Of a DNA stretch of 64,000 bases, positions 2,335 through 50,960 are shown in pieces (the stretch's first letter is position 1; each line of letters starts with the position of its first letter). Made by a program: the position numbers and the translations under genes. Source of the stretch: Alphaproteobacteria bacterium (GTDB lineage Bacteria > Pseudomonadota > Alphaproteobacteria > CAAHEQ01 > UBA3637); contig JAZQXL010000012.1 of NCBI GenBank assembly GCA_045632845.1, positions 13,816-77,815 on the forward strand, written 5' to 3'. Under the pieces are notes generated by a model. It saw only the letters and a program-made list of their open reading frames with translations, searched no databases and was not told the origin of the DNA.

Positions 2335-5420
<3,086 letters not shown>

Positions 5421-5424
<4 letters not shown>

Positions 5425-7235
5425 TTTTCAGAATTTCCCATTTCATCAGCAAGTTCTTTAACAACCTTTGAAAGTTTTTCTTTCGTTTCATCTGTTAAAT
5501 CGTTTGTTGAAGCAATACTTTCTAAAATATCTGGATGTTTTGTTTTGATTAATTCTTGTAATTTTGTTTCAAACAAAGAAACTTTATCTAAATCAATTTC
5601 ATCCAAATATCCGTTCACACCTGCAAAAATTGAAATTACCTCTTCAGGCATTGAATAAGGCTGATACTGTTTTTGTTTCATAATTTCAGTTAAACGAGAA
5701 CCACGATTTAATAACGCTTGTGTTGCTGGATCAAGATCTGATGAAAATTGTGAAAAGTTCATCACTTCACGATATTGTGCCAAATCCAACTTTAACGAAC
5801 CTGCAACCTTTTTCATCGCTTTACTTTGAGCAGCAGATCCCACACGACTAACAGATAAACCAACGTTAATAGCAGGTCTAACCCCTTGCAAAAATAAATT
5901 AGATTCTAAGAAAATCTGACCATCTGTAATTGAAATAACGTTTGTTGGAATATAAGCAGACACATCTCCTTCTTGTGTTTCAATAACAGGAAGAGCCGTT
6001 AAAGAACCACCGCCATTTTCTTGACTAAGTTGTGCCGCTCTTTCAAGTAATCTAGAGTGCAAATAAAAAACATCCCCAGGATATGCTTCACGACCTGTTG
6101 GTCGTTTTAACAATAAAGACATTTCACGATAAGCAACGGCATGCTTTGATAAATCATCATAAAAGACAATAGCATTCATCCCATTATCTCTAAAATATTC
6201 TCCAATTGTGCAACCAGCATATGGTGCCAAATATTGCATTGCAGCACTATCGGATGCTGTTGCAGAAACAATCACCGTATAATCCAAAGCGCCTTTTTCT
6301 TCCAATGTGCGCATAATATCTCGAACAGTTGATTGTTTTTGACCAATTGCCACATAAATACAGAATAATTTTTCTTTATCAGGCAAAATAGCATTCTTTT
6401 CTTTTTGACTTAAAATTGTATCTAAGATAATTGCTGTTTTACCAGTTTGTCTATCGCCAATAATCAACTCACGTTGTCCACGCCCAATTGGAACCAATGC
6501 ATCAATTCCCTTAATTCCTGTTTGGATTGGCCTGTTCACAGAACTTCTTGCAATAATCCCAGGAGCTGGTGCCATAACAGGGTGATGAGGCAAATCTTTT
6601 AAAGATGATTTTCCATCAATAGCTTCACCCAATGGATTTAATACTCGACCCAACAACTCCATACCAACAGGAACTGTATTCATTTGTTGAGTTCTTGTTA
6701 CCAATGCACCTTCTTTAATATTTTGGGCATTATCAAAAATAACAATATCTACCACATCAGGATTTAAATTCAAAGCCATCCCATGTTGACCAGATTCAAA
6801 AACAACACGTTCACCAGCAGCAATCGTTTTTAATCCCTCAACTCTTGCAACACCATCAGAAACTGAAAGGACTTTTCCAACTTCTTTAACTTGCGTTTTT
6901 TCTTCAAACGCATCCACAGATTGAGAGAAAATAGATGCGATTTTATTCACGTCAATGGCTTGAGAAACCTTTGTTTCAATCTCTTTTTGAAATACTGCCA
7001 ATTGACCTTTTACCGAAGAATCAATCAAAAGGGAGTCCACATTCAATGTTAAACCACCAAGCAAAGCGGGATTCACTTTAACTTGCAACATAAAGTTGTC
7101 ATCTTTTAAAATATGAGCTAGTTTTTTTCTTAATGTATCCAATTGTTTTTCGGACAAAGAAACAGCAGACTCAACCTCTATATATCTTGTTGTTTCCGTT
7201 GTTTCATTCATTGTTGTTTCTGTCTTTTCAGCCAT
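5421..7235 (-). CDS. atpA: F0F1 ATP synthase alpha subunit with an in-frame N-terminal fusion to the C-terminal domain of the delta (OSCP) subunit
   Basis: Residues ~95-604 are a canonical alpha subunit (P-loop GDRQTGKTA). Residues ~17-90 ([66 protein letters not shown]) match the C-terminal domain of delta/OSCP. No stop codon separates the two parts. The ATG at 7235 has an AAAGGA Shine-Dalgarno 10 nt upstream. Confidence 0.8.
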
Positions 7236-8439: not shown

Positions 8440-9627
8440 TTAATTGCCTGCTTCTTTAAAATATGCATTAACAGCACGAACCAAAGCTTGTCCTAATTTT
8501 TTACGATAGGAGGCTTTTTGCATTTCTCGCTCTTCTTTCTTGTTAGACATATATCCCATTTCTAACAACACAGACGGAATATTTGGCGATTTTAAAACGG
8601 CAAATCCAGCAAAACGATGTGCATTTGGCAACAACTGAACCGTTCTTTGCATTTCTTTTACAACCAAATCAGCATATCTACGCGACTCTTTCATTGTGTC
8701 TTGTTTTGCAAGATCAATAAGAACACTACTAACTTCTTGTTGATAATCATCTAAATCCATACCAAGCAGAATATCTGATTTATTTTCTCTTTCAGCCAAT
8801 GCGGCTGCTTCTTTATCTGATGCCTTTTCAGAAATTGTATAAATCGACAACCCTCTTGCAGAAATATTTTTAGCACTGTCAGCGTGAATTGAAACAAATA
8901 AATCAGCCTTTGCTTCGTGTGCTTTTTTAACACGCCCTCTTAAAGAAATAAAAACATCTTTATCACGGCTAAGAACAACTTTATATCCAGCCTCTTCTAA
9001 AAGTTTTTTAGTTTCTTTTGCCATTTTAAGTGTTAAATCTTTTTCATAACGACCAGCTTTTGAAATTGCTCCAGGATCTTGTCCGCCATGTCCTGCATCT
9101 AGCATAATGATTTTTTTTGATTTTGCAAAAGGGAGTAACCCTGTTGTATTTTCTTTTTTCTTTACAGAAGCCTTTGTGGCTACCACACTTGTTTGTTGTG
9201 GCAATTTTTTTTGAACTTCTGGTTTTGAACTCGGTTTTAAATCCACAACCAAACGCCAAATTCCTTTTTTGCCTTCTGGAGGCAAAACAAAATGACTTTC
9301 TTCAACCGTTCTAGATAGATCAAAAACAATGCGAGCTGTGTCACCACCTTGTTTACCAAAACGAACTTTTGACACAACTGTATTTTTTTTAAATTCTTTT
9401 TTACGCACATGAGATTTAATCACACTTTTTGGCATATCCAAAACAAGTCGATTCGGATTTTCTAAAGTAAAAATTTTAGAATTTAATTTTGCATCCGACT
9501 CGACAACAACACGACCCGTTCCATTCGAAAAAGTAGAAAGACGAACATCACTAACCGTTGTAGCCAAAGCACTACAAGCTACAAAAATAAAAGACAAGAC
9601 CCAAAATACAATTGTTTTTATATTCAT
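8440..9627 (-). CDS. amiC: N-acetylmuramoyl-L-alanine amidase (AmiC-like, N-terminal AMIN domain)
   Basis: Signal peptide, an AMIN-like N-terminal domain and the Amidase_3 catalytic domain (IMLDAGHGGQDPGA...SIHADS...E) at the C-terminus. Confidence 0.85.
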   Translation of the reverse strand: MNIKTIVFWVLSFIFVACSALATTVSDVRLSTFSNGTGRVVVESDAKLNSKIFTLENPNRLVLDMPKSVIKSHVRKKEFKKNTVVSKVRFGKQGGDTARIVFDLSRTVEESHFVLPPEGKKGIWRLVVDLKPSSKPEVQKKLPQQTSVVATKASVKKKENTTGLLPFAKSKKIIMLDAGHGGQDPGAISKAGRYEKDLTLKMAKETKKLLEEAGYKVVLSRDKDVFISLRGRVKKAHEAKADLFVSIHADSAKNISARGLSIYTISEKASDKEAAALAERENKSDILLGMDLDDYQQEVSSVLIDLAKQDTMKESRRYADLVVKEMQRTVQLLPNAHRFAGFAVLKSPNIPSVLLEMGYMSNKKEEREMQKASYRKKLGQALVRAVNAYFKEAGN

Positions 9628-9884: not shown

Positions 9885-12167
9885 ATGTCAAAAAAGATGC
9901 TTATCGATGCAACGCATCTGGAAGAAACCCGCGTTGTTGTATCAGAAAATGGGAGAGTTGAAGAACTAGATGTTGACACCTCAACCAAAAAACAAATTAA
10001 AGGAAATATTTATTTAGCAAAAATCGTTCGCGTTGAACCATCATTGCAAGCTGCTTTTGTTGATTATGGTGGTAATCGACATGGCTTTTTAGCTTTTAGT
10101 GAAATTCATCCTGATTATTATCAAATCCCTGTTGCGGATAGAGAAGCTTTAAAAGCTATGCTCAAAAAAACTGAAGAAGATGATAATGACACACTTTTGG
10201 AAACAGCAGATTCTAAAAGTGATGTTGAGGTTGTTTCAGAAGTTGAATCTGATATTCGCACAAAATTTTGTCCTTCTTTTATCAAGAAATACAAAATTCA
10301 AGAAGTTATTAGACAAGGACAAGTCATGCTTGTTCAAGTTGTCAAGGAAGAACGAGGCAACAAAGGTGCTGCTTTAACAACTTATCTTTCATTAGCTGGT
10401 CGCTTCAGTGTTTTAATGCCAAACAATGGAAAAGGTGGCGGTATTTCACGCAAAATTACAAATGTAAAAGATAGAAAAGCACTCCGCTCCATCATTGACA
10501 AATTCTCCATTCCTGATGGCATGAGCGTCATCATAAGAACTGCTGGTCAAGGCAAAACAAAAACTGAAATCAAACGTGATTACGATTACTTAATTAAAAC
10601 TTGGTTAAAGATCAGAGAAGAAACTCTCGAATCTCTTGCTCCAAAACTTATTCATGAAGAAGGGGACATCGTCAAACGTTCTTTAAGAGATGTGTTTACA
10701 CCTGATATTGAAGAAATCTGGATTGAGGGCGAAAGCGTTTTCAAATCTGCTAAAGAATTTATGAAAATGTTAATGCCAAGTCAGGCAAAAAAAATTAAAC
10801 AATATAAAGGCTCAGAACCTTTATTTGTAACACAACAAATTGAACCTCAATTAGAAAGTATTCACAGCAATATCGTTCAATTAAAATCAGGTGGTTACCT
10901 TGTAATTGATCAAACAGAAGCTTTGGTTGCTGTTGATGTCAACTCTGGTCGTGCAACAAAAGAACACGATATTGAAGAAACCGCATTAAGAACAAATCTT
11001 GAAACATGTGATGAATTGGCTCGTCAACTTCGTTTACGCGATATGGCTGGGCTTATTGTTATTGACTTTATTGATATGGAAGAGGCTAAAAACAATGCCG
11101 CAGTTGAACGAAGATTAAAAGAGGCGCTCAAAAAAGATAGAGCTCGCATTCAAGTTGGCAAAATGTCTGGTTTCGGGTTAGTTGAAATGTCGAGACAACG
11201 CTTGCATTCTAGCTTTTTAGAAAGCAGTTACCATTCATGCATGCACTGTGGTGGAAAAGGGGTTGTAAGATCTGTTGAATCTTGTGCAATGCATGCGTTA
11301 CACGTTTTGGAAGAAGCTGCATACAAAAATGTAAAGAACAAAATTCTCATTTCTTTACCTGTGAATGTGTCAACATATTTATTAAACGTAAAACGTTCTC
11401 ACTTGGTTGCATTAGAAACAAAATATAATGTAAACATTCAAATCATTCCTGATGAAACATTGTTGCGTCCTTCTGATTTCAAACTTGAACGCATTCGTGA
11501 AGATGGTGAACGTCAAAACATCAATTTACATACGCAAAATAAACAAGAGCAAAAAGAAAAGAAAAAACCTGATTTTTCACCTAAAAATCAAGTTGAAAAA
11601 GAACTTAAAAAAGCTGAAAAAATCGTTGCAGTTAAAGAAAAAGAACCTGAAGAAGAACCTGCAACTGAACCGGTTGAAGACAACAATTCTTTTGAAAAGA
11701 AAAATAAGAACAAACGCCGCAACGAATGGCGCAAAAGAAGACGTGAAAAAAGAATGATGGCTCGTTTAAAACGTCAAGCTGAAAAAGAAGAAAATGTTTC
11801 ATCAGCTCCTGTTGAAATGCCATCAGGGGAAGAAAAATTCACCGTTGTTGAACAAAAAGATTTTTCAGAAATCAAAGAAACAGAACAAAAAATTGAAAAA
11901 CTAAAATCAGAGAAAAAGGAAGTAAAAAAACAAACAAATCCTTCCAATTCTTCTGAACAAAATGGTGAAAAAAAGGCTCCACAAAAAAAGAAACCTCAAA
12001 AGAAGTCACGTCCTTCAGCAAAAAAGGAAAAAGAAAATAAACCTACAACTGAAGAAACTCCTGTCAAAAAAAAGGAAGATAAACCTATCTTGGTTGAAAA
12101 AGAAACACAAGATATGCAAGAACCTAGACAGGCAAAAAAGGGTTGGTGGAATAAACTTGTAAACTAA
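9885..12167 (+). CDS. rne: ribonuclease E
   Basis: 760 aa. The N-terminal S1 and RNase E/G catalytic domain carries signature DVNSGR and the zinc link CxxC. The C-terminal half is a long Lys/Glu-rich low-complexity scaffold tail. Confidence 0.9.
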   Translation: MSKKMLIDATHLEETRVVVSENGRVEELDVDTSTKKQIKGNIYLAKIVRVEPSLQAAFVDYGGNRHGFLAFSEIHPDYYQIPVADREALKAMLKKTEEDDNDTLLETADSKSDVEVVSEVESDIRTKFCPSFIKKYKIQEVIRQGQVMLVQVVKEERGNKGAALTTYLSLAGRFSVLMPNNGKGGGISRKITNVKDRKALRSIIDKFSIPDGMSVIIRTAGQGKTKTEIKRDYDYLIKTWLKIREETLESLAPKLIHEEGDIVKRSLRDVFTPDIEEIWIEGESVFKSAKEFMKMLMPSQAKKIKQYKGSEPLFVTQQIEPQLESIHSNIVQLKSGGYLVIDQTEALVAVDVNSGRATKEHDIEETALRTNLETCDELARQLRLRDMAGLIVIDFIDMEEAKNNAAVERRLKEALKKDRARIQVGKMSGFGLVEMSRQRLHSSFLESSYHSCMHCGGKGVVRSVESCAMHALHVLEEAAYKNVKNKILISLPVNVSTYLLNVKRSHLVALETKYNVNIQIIPDETLLRPSDFKLERIREDGERQNINLHTQNKQEQKEKKKPDFSPKNQVEKELKKAEKIVAVKEKEPEEEPATEPVEDNNSFEKKNKNKRRNEWRKRRREKRMMARLKRQAEKEENVSSAPVEMPSGEEKFTVVEQKDFSEIKETEQKIEKLKSEKKEVKKQTNPSNSSEQNGEKKAPQKKKPQKKSRPSAKKEKENKPTTEETPVKKKEDKPILVEKETQDMQEPRQAKKGWWNKLVN

Positions 12168-12172
12168 AAAAA

Positions 12173-12195
12173 GGCGAGTTCTCTCGCCTTTTTTT
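12173..12195 (+). terminator. rho-independent terminator of rne
   Basis: GGCGAG-ttct-CTCGCC hairpin followed by T7, directly after the rne stop. Confidence 0.7.
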
Positions 12196-12260
12196 ATATC
12201 TATTTATACATTTCTTATTGCAATTAAAATGATTCTATGATACACACAACATATCATAAT

Positions 12261-12335
12261 GACCCTATCATCTAGCGGTTAGGATACAACCCTCTCAAGG
12301 TTGGTACACGGGTTCAAATCCCGTTAGGGTCGCCA
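12261..12335 (+). tRNA. tRNA-Glu (anticodon CUC)
   Basis: Hand-folded cloverleaf. Acceptor stem GACCCTA/TAGGGTC, D-arm ATCT/GGAT, anticodon stem CAACC/GGTTG with loop CT-CTC-AA, T-arm ACGGG-TTCAAAT-CCCGT, discriminator G and an encoded CCA. Overall similarity to proteobacterial tRNA-Glu. Confidence 0.8.
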
Positions 12336-12616
12336 AAAACAAAAACGCCAACAGGTGTTTTTTTGTTTTGGGCAATATCGTCAGATATGAACCCTCGGGT
12401 TCGAGCAGTTAGTTGGTGAGAATATGAGCATAATTTTTATGCGATATTCGAACCTTACGATGCGAAAGGGTCCCAATTTAATTGGGAATATCAAATCCCG
12501 TTAGGGTCGCCAAAAACAAAAACGCCAACGGGCGTGTTTTTTGTTTTGGGCAATATCGTCAGATATGAACCCGTCGGGTTCGAGCAGTTAGTTGGTGAGA
12601 ATGAGCATAATTTTTA
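12314..12616 (+). repeat. tandem direct duplication (2 x ~127 bp, period 177 bp), each copy beginning with the last 22 nt of the tRNA-Glu
   Basis: Copy 1 is 12314-12440 and copy 2 is 12491-12616, about 95% identical. Each reads TCAAATCCCGTTAGGGTCGCCA, then an AAAAACAAAAACGCCAAC...GTTTTTTTGTTTTGGGC hairpin, then CAATATCGTCAGATATGAACCC..GGGTTCGAGCAGTTAGTTGGTGAGAAT..GAGCATAATTTTTA. The pattern is like attL/attR. Confidence 0.7.
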
Positions 12617-12681
12617 AGTATTTACTTTATATTCTTAATATTATATTCTGTAACAAGAAAATCAATTTTGAGAAAATACAA

Positions 12682-13216
12682 ATGAAAATTTTAATCATAG
12701 GCCCCCTTGGTGCAGGCAAATCATCTCTTGCCCACGCTTTGAATAAAAAATTTAATTTTCCACGATTAAATCTTGATGAAATTTGTAGAAATCCAAAAAA
12801 TGGGGACTATTACTCTCTTGAAAATTCTTTAAAAAAAATTAAACATCTTCATCAAGACTCATAACAATTGGGTCATAGAAGGAAGCCAATCATATTTATA
12901 CAAAAAAACAAGTCCCGACTTGATTATTGACATGCGCATTCTTCGTCTTGTGGCGATAGGCCGTTTTACATATCGATTTTTTAAAGCAAAAAAATTAATA
13001 GGGAAAAACATTGATAAAAATTTACCTGTTCAGGCCTACCATTACAGAAAAATAACATTATCAAAAATTTTAGATTGGGATAGTGCAAACAAGGAAATCA
13101 ATCAGCAAATTACTGATTATTTAAAAAACACCAAAATTCAAGTTCTAACGTGTAAAAATTTTAGAGATTACCAAAAAATTTTTGATTATATTGAGTTTTC
13201 AAAAATAATCTTTTAA
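12682..13216 (+). pseudogene. P-loop nucleoside/nucleotide kinase-like protein (adenylate-kinase/topology-modulation FlaR-like family), disrupted by a frameshift
   Basis: The N-terminal part MKILIIGPLGAGKSSLAHALNKKF... (Walker A) ends at a stop at 12862-12864. The rest of the fold (…NNWVIEGSQSYLYKKTSPDLIIDMRILRLVAIGRFTYRFFKAKK…) continues in the +1 frame to 13216. The family normally spans about 170 aa in one frame. Confidence 0.55.
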
Positions 13217-14859: not shown

Positions 14860-14931
14860 CATTTTATTTATAATAACAATCTATATGCTCTAAGAAATTT
14901 CTTAGAGCATTTTTTTATGGAGATAAATCTG

Positions 14932-41051: not shown

Positions 41052-44000
41052 TTAGAAGTTTTGTTTTAACTTCATCATACCACCATGTTCTTGATAGGAT
41101 TTTCTAAATGATCCCAAGTATTCAACAGAAAGGGTAGTAAGATCTCCAAGTTCTGCATCAATACCCAAATTGACATTTGTGCTAAATCTATCAAGTGCAT
41201 TTCCTTCTGCGGTATACACAGCACCATTAGAAAGTGTATTAATTGAACCCGTATCATCTGAAATAATATCATATCCAAACATTACACCTGCTGTTGGTCT
41301 GATATAAAGCCCGTGAACTGTTTTGTACGGAGCACGAATATCAATTCCTGCCATTGCAGTCATATAGCGATAAGTGTTGTTATCAATATGTGTATCTAAT
41401 GAATCAACATATGCTTCTTGGTTGATATCCATATATTTCAAACCAAGCTTTGGTGTGATAATTAAGTCACGGCAGCTAAAGTCATATCCTGCCATTGCTT
41501 GAACAGCAAAAGTATCCACATTATACATCCCATCAGATGCTGTTGAAAGAATGTTTTTTGACTCCTCATATTGTGAACGAGAATAACTGACAACACCTTC
41601 GACAAACCATTTGTTTGGTTGATATCTTGCAAAAGCAAAACCTGTGTTTGTTTGTGCTGTTGTATCACGACCAGATTGAGCAATATCTGCATACCCATAT
41701 GCATAACCAACACCCACAGTTAATGTATCTGTAATTTGTTTTTGAATACCAGCCACAAAACCTGTTTCGTTTGCTTTGAAATCACCTTTGTCATCATATT
41801 TTGCATGCCCATAAAGTGCTTTTACCCAAACTTGTGCATTTTGTGTTTCATCACCACCTGAGGTACCTTCAACTTTTGAAGATAATTTAACTTGGTCACT
41901 CACCGCATCTGTGATACCTTTAAAGTGTGATGAGGCAATTGATTGAACAACTGGAGAAACATTTCCACCTAAATTGTCAAGAGCTTTTACAGCCTTTTTA
42001 ATTAATGCTGCATTTCCAGATTGCAAATGTTCAATCAACTCTGTTTGAGCTTTGTTGAACAATTCATTTGTTCCACGCCCTTCATGCAATGCGATAATGG
42101 CAGCTGTTTGATTTTTATCAGAACCATATTGATTTGAAATTTTAGAACTATCTTTTGAAATGAATGAATATCTACCATCTTCTAAATCTAAGAAATTGAA
42201 ACCTTCATCATTATGTACTGCTGTTGGCAATGATGAAATGGCATCCATTTTAAGAACATTGTATAATCCCATTTCAAAATTTTCACCTAGGTCAAAATCA
42301 ATTTTAGAATCTTCTTCAGAAATTAAATTTGTACCTATCAATGAACCATAATCAGAACGATCATTCAACTGAACATTTAATGTTGAACCATTTTCTAATG
42401 TAATTTCTTGTGCGGTTACATCAATATTTCTGATATCAAGATTTGTATCATTTTGAACAGTTAAATTTGCAACTTCAATTGTTTTGATATCTTCACCAAA
42501 CTGCATATTATTGCTGACAAGATTATTAGATGTTGCAAAACCGTCTTTTACGTTCAATGTAGCACCATTCATGGTCAATGTACCATTACCTGTTAATGCA
42601 TTTGTAATTGAAAGATTACCTGTTGCAATCATTTGGTTGTTATTTTCAACAGAAGCAAATGTTGAATTATCAACATTTATTGTTCCTAAGTTTGAAGCAT
42701 TTTCAATCACAGAATTACCTTGAACGGTTAAAGTTCCCGTTCCTTTATTTTCAACAGTTGTAACCATTGAACCTGTTAACGTAGCATTACCAGTATTATC
42801 AAGAGAGGTGATTGTATCTTCTGTTGATGTTAAACTGTTGTTGTTTGTAACAGTACCCAACTTGGAGTTACTTGATGTTAACTTACCATCATTTGTGATT
42901 GTATCAACATTTGTAACACCTGATAATGTTGTGTTGCCATCTTGAGCATTATTAAGCGTTTTAATTGTACCACCTGTTGCTGTGAGTGTTCCGTTATTAA
43001 CAGTTAATAAACCAACTGTTGTATTAGTTAACCCTGTTGTTCCATCTTGGTTTGTCAACGTTGTGATAGAACCACCTTCTACCGTTAACGTACCACTGTT
43101 TGTAAGTGTTGCAACAGTTGTATCTGTTAACGTAGCACCACCAGTATTATCAAGTGACGTGATTGTATCTTCTGTTGATGTTAAACTGTTGTTATTTGTA
43201 ACAGTACCCAACTTAGATTTACCTGATGTTAATACACCATCATTTGTGATTGTATCAACATTTGTAACACCTGATAATTTTGTGTTACCATCTTGAGCAT
43301 TATTAAGTGTTTTGATTGTACCACCTGTTGCTGTGAGTGTTCCTTTATTAACAGTTAATGAACCAACTGTTGTATTGGTTAACCCTGTTGTTCCATCTTG
43401 GTTTGTCAACGTTGTGATAGAACCACCTTCTACCGTTAACGTACCACTGTTTGTAAGTGTTGCAACAGTTGTATTAGTTAACCCAGCACTACCAGTATTA
43501 TCAAGTGAAGTGATTGTATCTTCTGTTGATGTTAAACTGTTGTTGTTTGTAACAGTACCCAACTTAGATTTACCTGATGTTAATACACCATCATTTGTGA
43601 TTGTATCAACATTTGTAACACCTGATAATTTTGTGTTACCATCTTGAGCGTTATTAAGTGTTTCAATTGATCCACCTGTTGCTGTAACTGTTCCTTTATT
43701 CACTGTTAATGTACCAACAGTTGTATCAGTTAACCCTGCTGTTCCATCTTGGTTTGTTAAAGTTGTGATAGATCCACCCTCGGCAACAAATGTTCCTTCG
43801 TTTGTAACACCTTGCAAATTGCTGTTAGAAGATTTCATCGTTCCACTATTTGCAAGTAAAGCATTCGCATCATTGATTTGAACATTGTTTAATACCAAAC
43901 CATACTCACCACTTGTGGATAAATTATCAATAACAACTGTTGGTGCTGTGTTTGCTAAAGTGTCAATAATAACATTATCAAGAATAGCATTGCCATTTGT

Positions 44001-47000
44001 CATTGTTAAAATAGATATTGCATTTTTAATTGTTAAATCTTGAACAGTTAATTTTGTACTTGCATCTGAGACTTCAAACATACTGTGATTATTTGCATCA
44101 ATAATACTTGCACTGGCATCTCCTGCAACAGCACCAAGGATTAATTTTTCACCAATCCCTGTTGCACCCAAATCTGAAGTCATTTGATATGTTGAACCTG
44201 TTTCTCCATCAACAGACATATAGAAATTACTATTCCCTGCATATTGGTTAATATGGGTTAAAGAATTACCATCTGTCGTTTTGAATGCTTTTAATTCAAC
44301 AGTTTGCAAATCATCTGAGATAATTGCATTATATGTATAAGCATTTGTCACAGCATTAAATGATGTTGAACCTTTTAATGCATCTGCAAATGTAGCATTA
44401 CCTTGCAAAACTTGAACGGTGTAACTTGTTGATGTGCCATCATCTTTGTTTGCATCTTGATTATTAACCCCTGTTGGCACAACTTTGAAATTTGCATTTG
44501 CAACAACAAAAGCATTGTCACCAGTTACATTCAACACATCTGATTTTGCAATCACACCATTAAATCCACCATCAATAGCATTTGAAACAAGACCAATATC
44601 AACCGCTAATGTTGTATTGCTTCCTGCAACATTTTGCATATTCACAACTGAATAAATATCATCTTGCATATTGATGGTTGAATTATCAAATTGATATGTT
44701 TCACCAGCATATTCGTTTGCTGTCAACTGAACAGTTGCATTGTCAAATTTAATCAAATCTTCTACTGTTCCAGAACCCATGTCAGTCAATGTATATGTCC
44801 CATTTTTGAATGAAATCGTTGAAGTTCCAACTTCCCCATCTGACAAAACAATTTTGTTTGCATTGTGGACAACTGTTTCATCTGATGTGGTTGATTCAAA
44901 TGAAATTATACCATTTCCTGTTGCTGTTGCAGTGTATCCAATTGTATCGCCTTTTGTTTCAAGTATACCACCTGAAATTGTGTTTACTCCTTGGAAGAAG
45001 TTTTCACTATCTGCAATTGTTTTTCCACCTGTTTGATTAAATTCACCTGTGAATGTTTTTACATTTTCACTTCCAAAAGTTAAATTGCCTGAATTGTTAA
45101 TAGTGCCGGCACCCTCAATTGTTCCAGCAAAGTGAACTGCCCCAGATAAATTCATTTCACCTTGATGAGAGATATTAGAAAAAGACGTATTGTTTGCATT
45201 TAATGTTGCACCAGACAAAACATTTGTATCTCCAGTAACTGAAAGTGTATTAGCAACACCATTTAAAGAAACGCTCCCTCCATTTACATTCAAGTTTGTA
45301 AGAGCTGTATTGGTTAATTTAGCTGTTCCATCTTGGTTTGTCAATGTTGTGATAGATCCACCGTTAGCTGTTAATGCACCACTGTTTGTAAGTGTTGCAA
45401 CAGTTGTATCTGTTAACTCAGCACCACCAGTATTATCAAGTGACGTGATTGTATCTTCTGTTGATGTTAAACTGTTGTTATTTGTAACAGTGCCCAACTT
45501 AGATTTACCTGATGTTAATACACCATCATTTGTGATTGTATCAACATTTGTAACATCTGATAATTTTGTGTTACCATCTTGAGCATTATTAAGTGTTTTA
45601 ATTGTACCACCTGTTGCTGTAACTGTTCCTTTATTAACAGTTAATGAACCAACTGTTGTATCAGTTAACCCTGTTGTTCCATCTTGGTTTGTTAAAGTTG
45701 TGATAGATCCACCGTTAGCTGTTAATGCACCACTGTTTGTAAGTGTTGTAACAGTTGTATTAGTTAACTCAGCACCACCAGTATTATCAAGTGAAATAAT
45801 TGTATCTTCTGTTGATGTTAACACGCCTTTATTTGTTACAACACCAAGTGTTGAGCTATTGCTTGCTAAAGAACCACTATTTTCGACATCTTTAAATGAA
45901 ACATTGGTTGCGTTTAATTTGCCATCTGTTGCAATGGTTGTTTTTCCACCAACTGTTAAAGGGGTTGTTGTACCAATCAAACCAACTACCCCACCTGTTA
46001 CATCTAATACTCCAGATATAGTTGTATCTATTAAGGTTGTACTCCCTGCAGTGTTCAACAAAGAAGAAATTGATCCACCATTTGTTGTGAAAGACCCACT
46101 GTTTTCAACAGATGTTAATGTAGAATTTACACCATTAAATCTGCCTGAGTTTATCAAGTCTTTTAATGTGCTATTTTGAACATTCATAGCCCCTGAGTTT
46201 TCAATCAAATCTTCAGCATCTTGAATGTGAACATTTTTTAAAACAAGCCCATAAGTTGTATCATCCCCTGCAGCGTTTGACATAATTGGATTTGCAACTA
46301 AATTGCCATTCTCAAGCCCAACATTTGTTGTGTTATGAATCCAGACATTTTCAAAAGTTGTTGTACCTGCACCTTGCGCTGTTGTTAAAACAGAACTTGT
46401 ATCTGTGATTGCAACATCTTTTACCGTTAAATTTGTATCGGCATTTGATACATCAAACATCGAATAGCCATTAGCATCAATGGTACTTTTGATAATGTTC
46501 GATCCATCTGTATAACCTTGAACAAGCTTGTTTCCTGTGCCTGTTGTACCCAAAGATGAATTCATTTCATATCTTGAATCAAGATTTGTCATATAAAAAG
46601 CACTATCCCCTGTATACTGATTAACAGCTCTTAATGAATCGCCATTTGCAGCTTGAATTGCCGTTAACTCAATTGTTTGAGAATCTTTTAATCCCACATT
46701 ATATTGATAGACATCTGTTGAAACAAGAGCACTGTTTATTGGAGTGTTAAATGTGACACCTTCCAAAACCTTTTTAGAAATGCTTGTTGTTAAACCGCTA
46801 TCTAACTGAACATTGTTAATAATCTGAACTTTTGTTAAATCCAAATCAAAAGAAGATGTATTACTTGGATTTAAAACTGTGATTGTATCTGAACCCAAAG
46901 CTAATGTGCCATCTGTATTTTTTGAAAGTTTAACGTCAAATGCTAAATCTGTGTTAGAAAGGAAAAGATTATCTCCTGTAAATTGAATATTGCTTAACCC

Positions 47001-50000
47001 ATTTCCTCTCAAATCAACTGTTGTATCATTAAAACTGTATGTTTCACCAGCATATTCGTTTGCTGTCAATTGAACTGTTGCATTGTCAAACTTGATTAAA
47101 TCTTCTGCTGTTCCAGAACCCATATCAGCCAATGTATATGTCCCATTTTTGAATGAAATCGTTGAAGTTCCATTTTGCACATTTGATAAGACAATTTTGT
47201 TTGCATCGTGGACAACAGATGTATCTGAAGAAGTTGATTCAAATGAAATTGCACCACGCCCTGTAGCTGTTGCAGTATATCCAATTGTATCGCCTTTTGT
47301 TTCAAGTATACCACCTGAAATTATGTTTGATTTTTGGAAGAAGTTGTTGCTATCTGCAATTGTTTTACCATCTGTTTGGCTAAATGTACCAACATATTTT
47401 GTATTATCCGCAGCACCTAAAATCAAATTGCCAGAATTTGTGATACTTCCAGTACCAGAGACACCTCCTGTCAACTGAATATCTCCAGACAAATTTGTTT
47501 TCCCTTGTCCTGAAAGCAAACCAGTCACAATGGAATCCGTTAATGTAACTGAGCCCAGATCATTTGTTAACCCTGCTATTGAACTATCAGTTGCGGTAAA
47601 ATTCCCTGCAACAATAACATCAGAAAAAGCTGTCCTGTCAGCTGTTAAATCTGTGCCAGTTGCGACGGTTGTTTTCCCAGAAACAACTGTATCCTCTAAA
47701 GCAACATCACCCCCCGTGATTCCCAATGCTCCAGTGATTTGAGTAGAGGTCAAATCAGCTTTACCACCTGTGTTTGCTAAACTTGCAAGAGAACCACCAA
47801 GAATGGTCAAATCACCGCTGTTTGTAAGACCTTGCATTGTAGCATTTACTGCATTTAATGTACCAGCATTTTCAACGGCTGAAAGGCTTGCATTGTTTGT
47901 TGCTAAAAGTGTACCATTAGCGCCAACAGTTGTTTTACCATTGATGATGGAACCATTTAAATCAACATCGCCACCTGTAATAGCAAGAGAACCATTGACA
48001 CCAGCAGACATTAAAGTTGCTGTTCCATTCGTATTGCTCAAACTTTCTAATGTACTATCTGTTGCTGTAAAAGTTCCTGCATTTTCAACACCAGCTAAAC
48101 TTGTACCATTCGTTGCTGAAAGTTTTGCAGCTGCTCCAACAATTGTTTTGCTGATAACAACAGTATCATCCAAATTAACTGTTCCGCCTGTGGCTGTAAT
48201 TGTGTTATCAACATGTGCAGAACTTAAAGTTGCTGTTCCATTCGTATTGCTCAAACTTTCTAATGTACTATCTGTAACTGTAAAAGTTCCTGCATTTTCA
48301 ACTGTTGCAAATCTTGTGTTGTTTGTTGCCAAAAGAGTACCATCAGCTCCAACAGTCGTTTTGTCAGCAACAGTTACACCATCTAAATCAACTGTTCCAG
48401 CTGTTGCATTTAAAGTTCCATTAACTTTAGTCGATGTTAAAGCAGCTGTTCCACCACTGTTTGTTAAACTTGCAAGTGAACCCCCATTGGCTGTGAAAAT
48501 TCCTGCATTTTCAACAGCTGCAAATGTTGTATTGTTTATTGCTGAAAGGGAACCATCAGCTCCAACTGTTGTTTTTCCACCAACAGTTGCTCCGTCTAAA
48601 TCAACCGTTCCGCCTATTACATCTAAAGTACCAGTAATTGCAGCATCTGTTAAAGCAGCTGTTCCACCAGTATTTATTAAACTTGCAAGTGAACCACCAT
48701 TGACTGTAAAATCTCCTTCATTTTCAACATTTTCAAACGTTGTATTGTTTGTTGCCAAAAGAGTACCATCAGCTCCAACAGTCGTTTTGTCAGCAACAGT
48801 TACACCATCTAAATCAACCGTTCCGCCTGTTGCATTTAAAGTTCCATTAACTTTAGTCGATGTTAAATCAGCTGTTCCACCTGTATTTGTTAAATCTGTA
48901 AGTGAACCACCATTGGCTGTAAAAGTTCCCGCATTTTCAACATCTGCAAATGTTGTATTGTTTATTGCTGAAAGGGAACCATCAGCTCCAACTGTTGTTT
49001 TGTCAGCAACAGTTGCACCATCTAAATCAACCGTTCCGCCTGTTGTATTCAAAGCACCAGTAATTGCAGTATCTGTTAAAGTCCCTGTTCCACTAGTATT
49101 TGTTAAATCTGCAAGTGAACCCCCATTGGCTGTGAAAGTTCCTGCATTTTCAACACCTGCTAAACTTGTACCATTCGTTGATAAGAGTGTACCATCAGCT
49201 CCAACTGTTGTTTTTCCACCAACAGTTGTTCCGTCTAAATTAACTGTTCCAGCTGTTGCATCTAAAGGTCCATTAATTTGAGTCGATGTTAAAGTTGCTG
49301 TTCCACCACTGTTTGTTAAATCTGTAAGTAACCCCCCATTGGCTGTGAAAGTTCCTGCATTTTCAACGTCTGAAAGACTTGTGTTGCCTGTTGCTGAAAC
49401 TTTACCATTGGCACCAACAGTTGTTTTTCCATCAACAGTTGTACCATGTAAACTAACAGCTCCGCCTGTTACATCTAAAGCACCAGTAATTGTAGCATCT
49501 GTTAAACTTGCTGTTCCACCTATATTTGTTAAATCTGTAAGTGAACCACCAGTAACACCAAGCCCCCCCCATTCATTTAAAACATGTTGCATTACAGTAT
49601 TTGTTGCCGTTAAGTTTCCACTATACGATAAATTCGTATCTCCAGAAATTTCAACATCAGTCAAATTTGTAAGACCCAAACCTTGAACGTTTAAAGCACC
49701 AAGAGTCCCTCCTTGAATGGTTAAAGAACCACCATTTATAACATTTTGCATTGCAACATCAACTGCATTTAATGCTGCGCCAAAACCAACTGTTGTTTTA
49801 TCAGCAACAGTTGCACCATCTAAACTAACAGTTCCCCCTGTTACATCTAAAGCACCAGTAATTGTAGCCTCTGTTAAAGTCCCTGTTCCACTAGTGTTTG
49901 TTAAATCTGTAAGTGAACCACCATTGGCTGTGAAAGTTCCTGCATTTTCAACATCTGCAAATGTTGTATTGTTTGTTGCTGAAAGGGAACCTGATGTTCC

Positions 50001-50960
50001 AACAGTCGTTTTGTCAGCAACAGTTGCACCATCTAAATTAACAGTTCCACCTGTTACATCTAAAGTACCAGTAATTGTAGCCTCTGTTAAAGTCCCTGTT
50101 CCACTAGTGTTTGTTAAACTAGCAAGTGAACCACCATTGGCTGTGAAAGTTCCTGCATTTTCAACATCTACAAATGTTGTATTGTTTGTTGCTGAAAGGG
50201 AACCATCAGCTCCAACAGTCGTTTTGTCAACAACAGTTGAGCCATCTAAATTAACCGTTCCTCCAGAGACCATAACAGCACCAAAAAAAACTTCATCACC
50301 TTCAAGTATTGTGTTTGTTAAATTAGCTATGCCGGCAGAATTGCCCAAAAAGGTAAACGTACTATTCGTCGCATCAAACATTCCATCATTTTCAACACCA
50401 GCATCAAGTGCCACATTCTCAAAACTAACTTTTCCTCCATTATTAGAAACAGATACAGGCTTTAGTGGAACAAGGTTTTCTAGCACAAAATCCGAATTAA
50501 CTATAGCTATATTTTTAAAAGTCGCCGCACCACCTTCATTAACCCTCACAACACTATTCGCATTTTTAATGGTTAAATCTTGAACCGTCAAATGACCACT
50601 TGTTGCATCTACATTAACATTCAAAAAGTTTCCGTTAGCATCTAAAACATAATCAGTGCTGTTGATGGCACCTAAGGCATTATCTGCCCCTTGAATAACC
50701 TTATTCCCCGCACCAAATGTGCCTAATGTGGATCCATCTAAATCAGCATCAGTAACCGTATAAGTATTATCCACCCCTTGAACTGAAATATCAAAAACAC
50801 CATCACCCTCTGAACGAGCAAATTCACCCAACGTTGTTGCTGATGCTGCATTCACAGCAAGTGAACTTGCGATAATCACTGCATTTAGATATGCGCATTT
50901 TTTTAAGATATCTAAATATCTGGATTTGAGTTCTTTGATGGCGGTGCGGGACAGTTTCAT
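41052..50960 (-). CDS. giant classical (type Va) autotransporter adhesin with triplicated repetitive passenger domain
   Basis: 3302 aa. Extended autotransporter signal peptide (MKLSRTAIKELKSRYLDILKKCAYLNAVIIASSLAVNAASA). Passenger built from 55-aa and 110-aa T/G/N/L-rich tandem repeats plus three copies of a pertactin-like head module. C-terminal ~300 aa is a 12-strand beta-barrel translocator ending ...KLKQNF. Hairpin terminator at ~41010-41045. Confidence 0.85.
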   Translation of the reverse strand: MKLSRTAIKELKSRYLDILKKCAYLNAVIIASSLAVNAASATTLGEFARSEGDGVFDISVQGVDNTYTVTDADLDGSTLGTFGAGNKVIQGADNALGAINSTDYVLDANGNFLNVNVDATSGHLTVQDLTIKNANSVVRVNEGGAATFKNIAIVNSDFVLENLVPLKPVSVSNNGGKVSFENVALDAGVENDGMFDATNSTFTFLGNSAGIANLTNTILEGDEVFFGAVMVSGGTVNLDGSTVVDKTTVGADGSLSATNNTTFVDVENAGTFTANGGSLASLTNTSGTGTLTEATITGTLDVTGGTVNLDGATVADKTTVGTSGSLSATNNTTFADVENAGTFTANGGSLTDLTNTSGTGTLTEATITGALDVTGGTVSLDGATVADKTTVGFGAALNAVDVAMQNVINGGSLTIQGGTLGALNVQGLGLTNLTDVEISGDTNLSYSGNLTATNTVMQHVLNEWGGLGVTGGSLTDLTNIGGTASLTDATITGALDVTGGAVSLHGTTVDGKTTVGANGKVSATGNTSLSDVENAGTFTANGGLLTDLTNSGGTATLTSTQINGPLDATAGTVNLDGTTVGGKTTVGADGTLLSTNGTSLAGVENAGTFTANGGSLADLTNTSGTGTLTDTAITGALNTTGGTVDLDGATVADKTTVGADGSLSAINNTTFADVENAGTFTANGGSLTDLTNTGGTADLTSTKVNGTLNATGGTVDLDGVTVADKTTVGADGTLLATNNTTFENVENEGDFTVNGGSLASLINTGGTAALTDAAITGTLDVIGGTVDLDGATVGGKTTVGADGSLSAINNTTFAAVENAGIFTANGGSLASLTNSGGTAALTSTKVNGTLNATAGTVDLDGVTVADKTTVGADGTLLATNNTRFATVENAGTFTVTDSTLESLSNTNGTATLSSAHVDNTITATGGTVNLDDTVVISKTIVGAAAKLSATNGTSLAGVENAGTFTATDSTLESLSNTNGTATLMSAGVNGSLAITGGDVDLNGSIINGKTTVGANGTLLATNNASLSAVENAGTLNAVNATMQGLTNSGDLTILGGSLASLANTGGKADLTSTQITGALGITGGDVALEDTVVSGKTTVATGTDLTADRTAFSDVIVAGNFTATDSSIAGLTNDLGSVTLTDSIVTGLLSGQGKTNLSGDIQLTGGVSGTGSITNSGNLILGAADNTKYVGTFSQTDGKTIADSNNFFQKSNIISGGILETKGDTIGYTATATGRGAISFESTSSDTSVVHDANKIVLSNVQNGTSTISFKNGTYTLADMGSGTAEDLIKFDNATVQLTANEYAGETYSFNDTTVDLRGNGLSNIQFTGDNLFLSNTDLAFDVKLSKNTDGTLALGSDTITVLNPSNTSSFDLDLTKVQIINNVQLDSGLTTSISKKVLEGVTFNTPINSALVSTDVYQYNVGLKDSQTIELTAIQAANGDSLRAVNQYTGDSAFYMTNLDSRYEMNSSLGTTGTGNKLVQGYTDGSNIIKSTIDANGYSMFDVSNADTNLTVKDVAITDTSSVLTTAQGAGTTTFENVWIHNTTNVGLENGNLVANPIMSNAAGDDTTYGLVLKNVHIQDAEDLIENSGAMNVQNSTLKDLINSGRFNGVNSTLTSVENSGSFTTNGGSISSLLNTAGSTTLIDTTISGVLDVTGGVVGLIGTTTPLTVGGKTTIATDGKLNATNVSFKDVENSGSLASNSSTLGVVTNKGVLTSTEDTIISLDNTGGAELTNTTVTTLTNSGALTANGGSITTLTNQDGTTGLTDTTVGSLTVNKGTVTATGGTIKTLNNAQDGNTKLSDVTNVDTITNDGVLTSGKSKLGTVTNNNSLTSTEDTITSLDNTGGAELTDTTVATLTNSGALTANGGSITTLTNQDGTAKLTNTALTNLNVNGGSVSLNGVANTLSVTGDTNVLSGATLNANNTSFSNISHQGEMNLSGAVHFAGTIEGAGTINNSGNLTFGSENVKTFTGEFNQTGGKTIADSENFFQGVNTISGGILETKGDTIGYTATATGNGIISFESTTSDETVVHNANKIVLSDGEVGTSTISFKNGTYTLTDMGSGTVEDLIKFDNATVQLTANEYAGETYQFDNSTINMQDDIYSVVNMQNVAGSNTTLAVDIGLVSNAIDGGFNGVIAKSDVLNVTGDNAFVVANANFKVVPTGVNNQDANKDDGTSTSYTVQVLQGNATFADALKGSTSFNAVTNAYTYNAIISDDLQTVELKAFKTTDGNSLTHINQYAGNSNFYMSVDGETGSTYQMTSDLGATGIGEKLILGAVAGDASASIIDANNHSMFEVSDASTKLTVQDLTIKNAISILTMTNGNAILDNVIIDTLANTAPTVVIDNLSTSGEYGLVLNNVQINDANALLANSGTMKSSNSNLQGVTNEGTFVAEGGSITTLTNQDGTAGLTDTTVGTLTVNKGTVTATGGSIETLNNAQDGNTKLSGVTNVDTITNDGVLTSGKSKLGTVTNNNSLTSTEDTITSLDNTGSAGLTNTTVATLTNSGTLTVEGGSITTLTNQDGTTGLTNTTVGSLTVNKGTLTATGGTIKTLNNAQDGNTKLSGVTNVDTITNDGVLTSGKSKLGTVTNNNSLTSTEDTITSLDNTGGATLTDTTVATLTNSGTLTVEGGSITTLTNQDGTTGLTNTTVGLLTVNNGTLTATGGTIKTLNNAQDGNTTLSGVTNVDTITNDGKLTSSNSKLGTVTNNNSLTSTEDTITSLDNTGNATLTGSMVTTVENKGTGTLTVQGNSVIENASNLGTINVDNSTFASVENNNQMIATGNLSITNALTGNGTLTMNGATLNVKDGFATSNNLVSNNMQFGEDIKTIEVANLTVQNDTNLDIRNIDVTAQEITLENGSTLNVQLNDRSDYGSLIGTNLISEEDSKIDFDLGENFEMGLYNVLKMDAISSLPTAVHNDEGFNFLDLEDGRYSFISKDSSKISNQYGSDKNQTAAIIALHEGRGTNELFNKAQTELIEHLQSGNAALIKKAVKALDNLGGNVSPVVQSIASSHFKGITDAVSDQVKLSSKVEGTSGGDETQNAQVWVKALYGHAKYDDKGDFKANETGFVAGIQKQITDTLTVGVGYAYGYADIAQSGRDTTAQTNTGFAFARYQPNKWFVEGVVSYSRSQYEESKNILSTASDGMYNVDTFAVQAMAGYDFSCRDLIITPKLGLKYMDINQEAYVDSLDTHIDNNTYRYMTAMAGIDIRAPYKTVHGLYIRPTAGVMFGYDIISDDTGSINTLSNGAVYTAEGNALDRFSTNVNLGIDAELGDLTTLSVEYLGSFRKSYQEHGGMMKLKQNF
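43280..46520. repeat. tandem ~330-bp (110-aa) coding repeats inside the autotransporter gene, in two blocks (about 45860-46520 and 43280-44570; approximate)
   Basis: Protein unit: LTSTEDTITSLDNTGGAELTDTTVATLTNSGALTANGGSITTLTNQDGTTGLTDTTVGSLTVNKGTVTATGGTIKTLNNAQDGNTKLSDVTNVDTITNDGVLTSGKSKLGTVTNNNS, repeated about 2 + 3.5 times. Antisense ORFs 42982..43296 and 43312..43647 have near-identical translations, confirming the DNA-level repeat. Confidence 0.6.
47960..50270. repeat. tandem ~165-bp (55-aa) coding repeats inside the autotransporter gene, ~14 copies (approximate bounds)
   Basis: Protein unit: TFTANGGSL(A/T)DLTNTSGTGTLT(E/D)ATITGALDVTGGTV(N/D)LDGATVADKTTVGADGSLSATNNTTFADVENAG, reiterated with minor variation. 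Confidence 0.6.

Follow-up and report, generated by a model that had tools for sequence, protein, structure and literature searches.

The window analysed here, a 64-kb stretch of alphaproteobacterial DNA, contains a single tRNA gene called by ARAGORN, a complete tRNA-Glu(CTC) on the plus strand at positions 12261-12335 (Rfam RF00005, 61.6 bits). The gene lies downstream of rne, which encodes RNase E (9885-12167; Pfam), and the intergenic region that holds it begins at the predicted intrinsic terminator of rne, a 14-bp stem followed by a T-run (12165-12196, plus strand). The 3′ end of the tRNA, a 22-mer reaching from the T-loop to the CCA (TCAAATCCCGTTAGGGTCGCCA), is found at exactly two sites, 12314-12335 and 12491-12512, with none expected by chance; no third copy was detected across the 64 kb, even with up to three mismatches allowed. 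Each 22-mer opens a 126-nt direct repeat on the plus strand. Copy 1 (12314-12439) consists of the tRNA 3′ end, a terminator hairpin with its T-run, a GAACCC/GGGTTC hairpin and a tail ending in ...GAGCATAATTTTTA. Copy 2 (12491-12616) consists of a partial tRNA 3′ end (12491-12512), a second terminator, a second GAACCC/GGGTTC hairpin and the tail. The two copies match at 122 of 128 aligned columns (~95%), differing by two substitutions and three small indels, and their start-to-start distance is 177-179 nt. The flank 3′ of copy 2 is conserved among relatives.

The initial annotation, made from the sequence of the window, had described two kinds of hairpin in each repeat copy, and both were indeed found. 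Intrinsic terminators are predicted at 12341-12362 (copy 1) and 12522-12535 (copy 2), each with a GC-containing stem-loop and a T-run, and a terminator consensus scan returned four sites where 0.5 were expected; the GAACCC/GGGTTC hairpins lie at 12389-12402 (copy 1) and 12567-12581 (copy 2). Between the copies is a unique, unduplicated spacer of 51 nt (12440-12490, plus strand), which is the sole DNA able to represent the remains of an inserted element, and no ORF of at least 60 aa is present between the repeats. Within the spacer lies a palindrome, CCCAATTTAATTGGG, at 12472-12486. A reading of this palindrome as a UUA 'anticodon arm' was rejected: the T-stem/acceptor partner is missing and no tRNA is called.

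The left boundary of the repeat is sharp and falls inside the T-loop, at T|TCAAATCCC (T|TCAAAT). In front of copy 2, no similarity was found to the 53-nt 5′ part of the tRNA; copy 2 was called neither by ARAGORN nor by the Rfam tRNA model, and positions 12440-12512 gave no tRNA match even at E≤10. These results bear on the idea that the whole tRNA gene was duplicated in tandem and that the 5′ part of the second copy then decayed. The spacing of 177 nt is indeed about that of one tRNA plus its trailer, and the 51-nt spacer fills the slot of the first 53 nt of the tRNA. However, the 22-nt 3′ end is 100% conserved, whereas the adjacent 51 nt are not significantly similar to the tRNA (p = 0.27), and neutral decay cannot be so uneven. 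Together with the failure of both programs to detect a pseudo-tRNA, this makes decay of a complete second gene very improbable, and the sharp junction beside a perfect 22-mer argues for recombination rather than for decay of a duplicated gene.

The duplication itself is genuine. The same duplicated arrangement is present in two independent ENA metagenome assemblies from other samples, L085 and L093 (related loci are referred to by L numbers throughout), and in both of them the spacer is identical to that of the window at 51 of 51 positions; the rne gene of L085 is ~92.5% identical to that of the window at the nucleotide level. The duplication noticed initially is thus reproduced independently. 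Two further independent contigs, L089 (end at 4792) and L094 (end at 4359), stop at ...GGTACACGG, 2 nt short of the repeat, where a repeat branch point would be expected to end them; this shows that assemblers struggle here and might lend some weight to an assembly artefact. Nevertheless, the identical spacer and structure in two independent assemblies, the differences between copies 1 and 2 at several positions and a repeat length below typical read or k-mer lengths reduce the probability of an artefact to a negligible level. What the breaks in L089 and L094 indicate is that the repeat or its polymorphism disrupts short-read assembly at this place.

Presence/absence polymorphism at this site, which the initial annotation had suggested looking for, was also observed. 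L088, assembled from a different sample again, agrees with L093 at 99.98% and 99.89% identity across 8.2 kb, but it has exactly one repeat copy and lacks the spacer, so that it equals L093 minus 177 bp. It therefore represents a single-repeat, empty-site allele, in contrast to the duplicated alleles of L093, L085 and the window. In its T-run length, and in having CA instead of AG at repeat position 62-63, the one copy in L088 agrees with copy 1 of L093, but it continues into the copy-2 flank. Since these copy-1 markers are retained, the crossover took place 3′ of repeat position 62, outside the T-loop and the att-like core. The simplest history, as read from these markers, is that a duplicated ancestor lost one unit when its two repeat bodies recombined homologously. 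On this reading, the L088 allele is neither a T-loop excision nor a pristine pre-integration site, and a crossover in the repeat body gives no sign of current site-specific activity. The 126-nt repeats make the 177-bp unit unstable through homologous recombination, its loss being seen in the L093/L088 pair and its gain presumably occurring as well. Among the seven W-type copies every difference is private, which dates the duplication to roughly the time when these strains diverged.

As judged from RNase E relatives, the window belongs to a clade of uncultured animal-gut Alphaproteobacteria known from MAGs, with the best species representative at 88% amino acid identity; exact-protein look-ups of the window RNase E and PDT-domain protein returned no record. 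In all close relatives rne is followed by tRNA-Glu(CTC). Downstream of the repeats, the window has a P-loop kinase-like gene with a Pfam AAA_33 N-terminus (12682-13216, plus strand), followed by a PDT-domain gene, a radical-SAM (rSAM) gene and alr on the minus strand. The remainder of the window is housekeeping in character (the atp operon, gyrB-recF-dnaN, dnaKJ, bipA, ligA and PEP carboxykinase).

The kinase-like gene is frameshifted, as reported initially: one extra A (+1) is present in an A8 run at 12831-12838, whereas L085, L088 and L093 have an intact gene of 177 aa, and the C-terminal ORF of the window matches residues 80-177 of the L085 protein at 97% identity. The gene could be a true pseudogene, or the extra A could be a sequencing error in the homopolymer. 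The kinase-like gene has weak, sub-threshold NCBIfam matches to 'DNA topology modulation protein' and kinase models. This gene, the PDT-domain gene and the rSAM gene had been proposed to be cargo remnants of an integrated element. However, the kinase-like gene is not within the segment that the repeats bound, and its upstream flank is common to relatives bearing a different gene there. For the other genes the proposal fails on synteny: PDT, rSAM, an Mpi-family serine invertase, alr and a transglutaminase-like gene keep their order down to ~80% rne nucleotide identity. Conserved in this way across the clade, PDT, rSAM and alr are core genes and not cargo.

Some departures from this order were seen. 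The rSAM gene is missing in the lineage of L001, L009 and L002. In relatives, a conserved small serine recombinase of ~200 aa is encoded between rSAM and alr (L005 12328-12936, L092 6796-7392, L088 7857-8271), and it fits the 'master DNA invertase Mpi family' model above its cutoff (294 vs 272 bits). The corresponding place in the window, 14860-14931, comprises just 72 nt, and the Mpi-family gene has therefore been lost from the window. A connection between this invertase and the tRNA-Glu repeat was considered and dropped, as no evidence ties the two and the gene is absent from the window.

The view of the site next to the tRNA as a hotspot, raised in the initial annotation, is supported. While the flanks, rne on one side and PDT-rSAM-alr on the other, are conserved, the gene content right after the tRNA varies across the clade. 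The position is empty in L092, holds a GNAT acetyltransferase gene in L087 and L091 (with a remnant in L002), the kinase-like gene in the window group and the L001 group, a lipoprotein gene plus a permease gene in L005-L007 and L084, the permease gene alone in L003 and an MmeI-type restriction-modification gene in L004. The last of these (L004 8909-11953) encodes a 1014-aa MmeI-family type IIL restriction-modification enzyme and sits directly 3′ of a probable degenerate distal tRNA-3′ copy described below; absent from L003, which is 93.6% identical, it is an accessory defence gene in the same hotspot. Between tRNA-Glu and the lipoprotein gene, L084 (~900-1190), L005 (~8760-8990) and L007 share a conserved, hairpin-rich stretch of ~230 nt that ends with a terminator and has compensatory changes discernible by eye, such as AGAGG..CCTCT versus AAAGG..CCTTT. 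No Rfam family matches this stretch, which the window lacks and which may represent a so far undescribed ncRNA or leader.

A second copy of the tRNA 3′ end is not confined to the window type. The sister lineage L001/L009/L086 (rne ~88% identical at the nucleotide level) has its own second copy of 20 nt, beginning 2 nt deeper in the same T-loop (C|AAATCCC). This partial copy is located ~164 nt downstream and is followed by the lineage's own terminator; the repeat there is ~65-75 nt long and the spacer ~100 nt, with 54% GC in a 34%-GC genome. No significant similarity exists between the L001-lineage and window spacers, the tests of between-lineage spacer homology giving p = 0.06-0.8, and the L001-lineage version looks independent of that in the window. 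L002 resembles the L001 locus without the insert. In L004 there is a probable degenerate tRNA-3′ copy (12 of 14 positions, p ~0.06) with its own, different terminator, and at least six other relatives have no second tRNA-3′ copy. Sequence clearly homologous to the hairpin-tail part of the window repeat occurs as a single copy in L005 and L084 (z = 9.9).

Partial tRNA genes as remnants of integration are documented and widespread (PMC9897764; bioRxiv 10.1101/2020.12.28.424599). Our preferred reading of the locus is accordingly a decayed scar of attL/attR type at a hypervariable position beside a tRNA, left by an element that integrated site-specifically into the tRNA-Glu(CTC) T-loop; we regard the case for it as evenly balanced. 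An element with its own copy of the tRNA 3′ end and downstream sequence would have recombined within the T-loop. The element-borne copy would now complete the tRNA as copy 1, and the displaced original 3′ end with its terminator would sit downstream as copy 2, an attR-like partial tRNA. Later, the element would have been almost wholly deleted, leaving at most the 51-nt spacer. Three points here are inferred: the action of an integrase at the junction, the import of copy 1, and the origin of the spacer from element DNA.

Several features recommend this reading: the sharp T-loop junction beside a perfect 22-mer and its recurrence in a second lineage, the unduplicated DNA of odd composition between the repeats, the empty-site alleles in L088 and L002, and the variable gene content of the site. 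Integration sublocations within tRNA genes were reportedly classified by Williams in 2002 into the anticodon loop and the T-loop. The repeat boundaries of the window and of L001/L009 both fall in the T-loop, a canonical sublocation, and a boundary shared by two lineages that differ in spacer and repeat length fits an integration scar. On the other hand, the 126-nt block of identity is unusually long for one. Within each lineage the two copies bear a terminator of that lineage, and this calls for an element adapted to the lineage, for later gene conversion or for a duplication that was purely local. Moreover, the single-copy allele keeps the hairpin and tail, which are inside the insert in the L001 lineage, so that more than one event is needed. 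An older scar within the hairpin-tail was also sought. This segment resembles the T-arm of an L003-type tRNA (CGGGTTCGAG--CAGTTAG, p ~0.0025), a likeness that is only suggestive after multiple tests and was not adopted; against the window's own tRNA no match was obtained (p = 0.23), and neither AGGGTC-CCA in the window spacer nor the TTAGG-like motifs in the L001 spacer were significant.

The search for the other parts of an integration system gave negative results. The initial annotation had stated that no integrase is present, and this was confirmed in the window and extended to related loci: no recombinase domain was found by Pfam in 40 non-overlapping window ORFs of at least 110 aa, and in 20 related loci there was no integrase, excisionase or other element gene between or beside the repeats. 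No kb-scale foreign DNA separates the repeats, the unique DNA amounting to just 51 nt. Apart from the identical copies in L085 and L093, the spacer had no match in 1.13 Mb of relatives' loci, in IMG/VR, or among phages and plasmids. When IMG/VR was scanned with the tRNA 3′ end, unrelated phage tRNA arrays were the only hits; scans with the window spacer, the L001 spacer, the tRNA core and the hairpin-tail motif, as well as with RNase E as an anchor, gave no match. BLAST against phage and plasmid records yielded chance-level matches, and a scan of JGI metagenomes for the tRNA core yielded a single L005-like contig. The T-loop start, the polymorphism, the hotspot and the copy in a sister lineage all fit the att-type scar proposed initially; neither an element, an integrase nor an attP donor was found in the 20 related loci, IMG/VR, or the phage and plasmid collections.

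The main rival is a local rearrangement that needs no recombinase. Template switching or slippage at the hairpin-forming T-arm and terminator could have duplicated 126 nt of host sequence and added 51 nt of filler, after which unequal or homologous recombination would gain or lose units. Such an origin would account for the presence of the lineage's own terminator and downstream sequence in both copies, and it agrees with the failure to find element genes or a donor, with the loss by homologous recombination in L088 and with the private differences in the seven W-type copies, which form a star-like set of similar age. The 177-nt period also nearly equals the 179 nt that copy 1 and the preceding part of the tRNA span together. 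Where this model is weak is the repeated T-loop boundary: it leaves unexplained why the left junctions of two, perhaps three, lineages lie within 2 nt of one another although their spacers and right-hand ends differ. In addition, slippage in bacteria does not usually produce 51-100 nt of filler with foreign-looking GC, and the unduplicated DNA between the repeats shows that they are not the product of a simple tandem duplication, which would have repeated the spacer too. We therefore treat local rearrangement as possible but rather unlikely.

The perfect conservation of the spacer raises the question of whether the distal unit, made up of hairpin, spacer, tRNA-like 3′ end and terminator, is a selected small RNA or regulatory module, for example, a mimic of the tRNA 3′ end or an insulating terminator before the kinase-like gene. 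The spacer is identical at 51 of 51 positions in three genomes that differ by 4-8% in the adjoining sequence; however, this conservation is weakly significant (p ~0.03-0.1), and the spacers of different lineages are not demonstrably homologous. The window segment folds better than its shuffled versions (z = -3.3), but the fold z-scores of the L001, L009 and L004 versions are not significant. The distal copy does have its own predicted terminator, and the differences between L001 and L009 in GGTGGCCC/GGCGAGCCC all retain complementarity to GGGTCGCC. Yet the unit is lost without any other change in L088, which is 99.9% identical, and is absent from most relatives; a search for a promoter-like site found none, and outside the tRNA Rfam gave sub-threshold chance matches (window, L001, L004) and no tRNA call. 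All in all, a selected function for the distal unit appears improbable. A related and similarly improbable view is that the 177-bp unit is a miniature non-autonomous integrative module that even now comes and goes by means of an integrase encoded elsewhere in the genome, or that the distal copy is a selected small RNA mimicking the tRNA 3′ end. Either possibility, module or small RNA, would explain the conserved spacer, the strain polymorphism and the recurrent T-loop boundary. As far as can be judged from sequence, the locus is inert today, comprising a working tRNA, two predicted terminators and two 126-nt direct repeats, with the second terminator and the partial tRNA apparently travelling as passengers.

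How does the locus compare with known systems? With the attL/attR sites of islands and prophages integrated into tRNA genes by tyrosine integrases it shares a complete tRNA plus a direct partial 3′ copy starting in the T-loop, an empty allele equal to one repeat, and a position that is a hotspot of gene content. It differs in having neither an integrase nor a kb-scale element, with 51 nt between the repeats, and in an identity block of 126 nt that continues ~105 nt past the tRNA into host-specific sequence. A second resemblance is to CIMEs, cis-mobilizable elements from the Streptococcus ICE literature in which att sites flank DNA without recombination genes. Here, too, two att-like repeats flank recombinase-free DNA, but the segment is just 177 bp long, there is no sign of mobilisation in trans, and the observed loss bypassed the att-like core. 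In the tycheposon islands of Prochlorococcus (bioRxiv 10.1101/2020.12.28.424599) and among tRNA gene fragments (PMC9897764), orphan partial tRNAs have been read as footprints of older integrations. The likeness to the window is an orphan partial copy by a full tRNA and variable genes beside a conserved tRNA; in those groups, however, some genomes contain intact integrase-bearing elements, whereas none were found in the window clade.

The window locus is thus an ordinary case of an already known feature type and reveals no new mechanism. Its relevance is mainly to annotation and assembly: the tRNA-Glu(CTC) gene directly 3′ of rne is a variable hotspot in this uncultured animal-gut clade of Alphaproteobacteria, and the repeat explains the contig breaks there. 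It also provides a clean, small example of a partial-tRNA repeat that persists and is then removed by homologous recombination. It would gain in interest only through evidence linking the 177-bp unit to an integrase acting in trans or to a transcript.

Two further features of the window, both on the minus strand, deserve mention. At 41052-50960 there is a giant ORF of 3302 aa without a Pfam domain at E≤1e-4. The ATP synthase alpha ORF (5421-7235, 604 aa) matches the C-terminal part of OSCP/delta over residues 5-85, which suggests either a delta-alpha fusion or a mis-set start codon.
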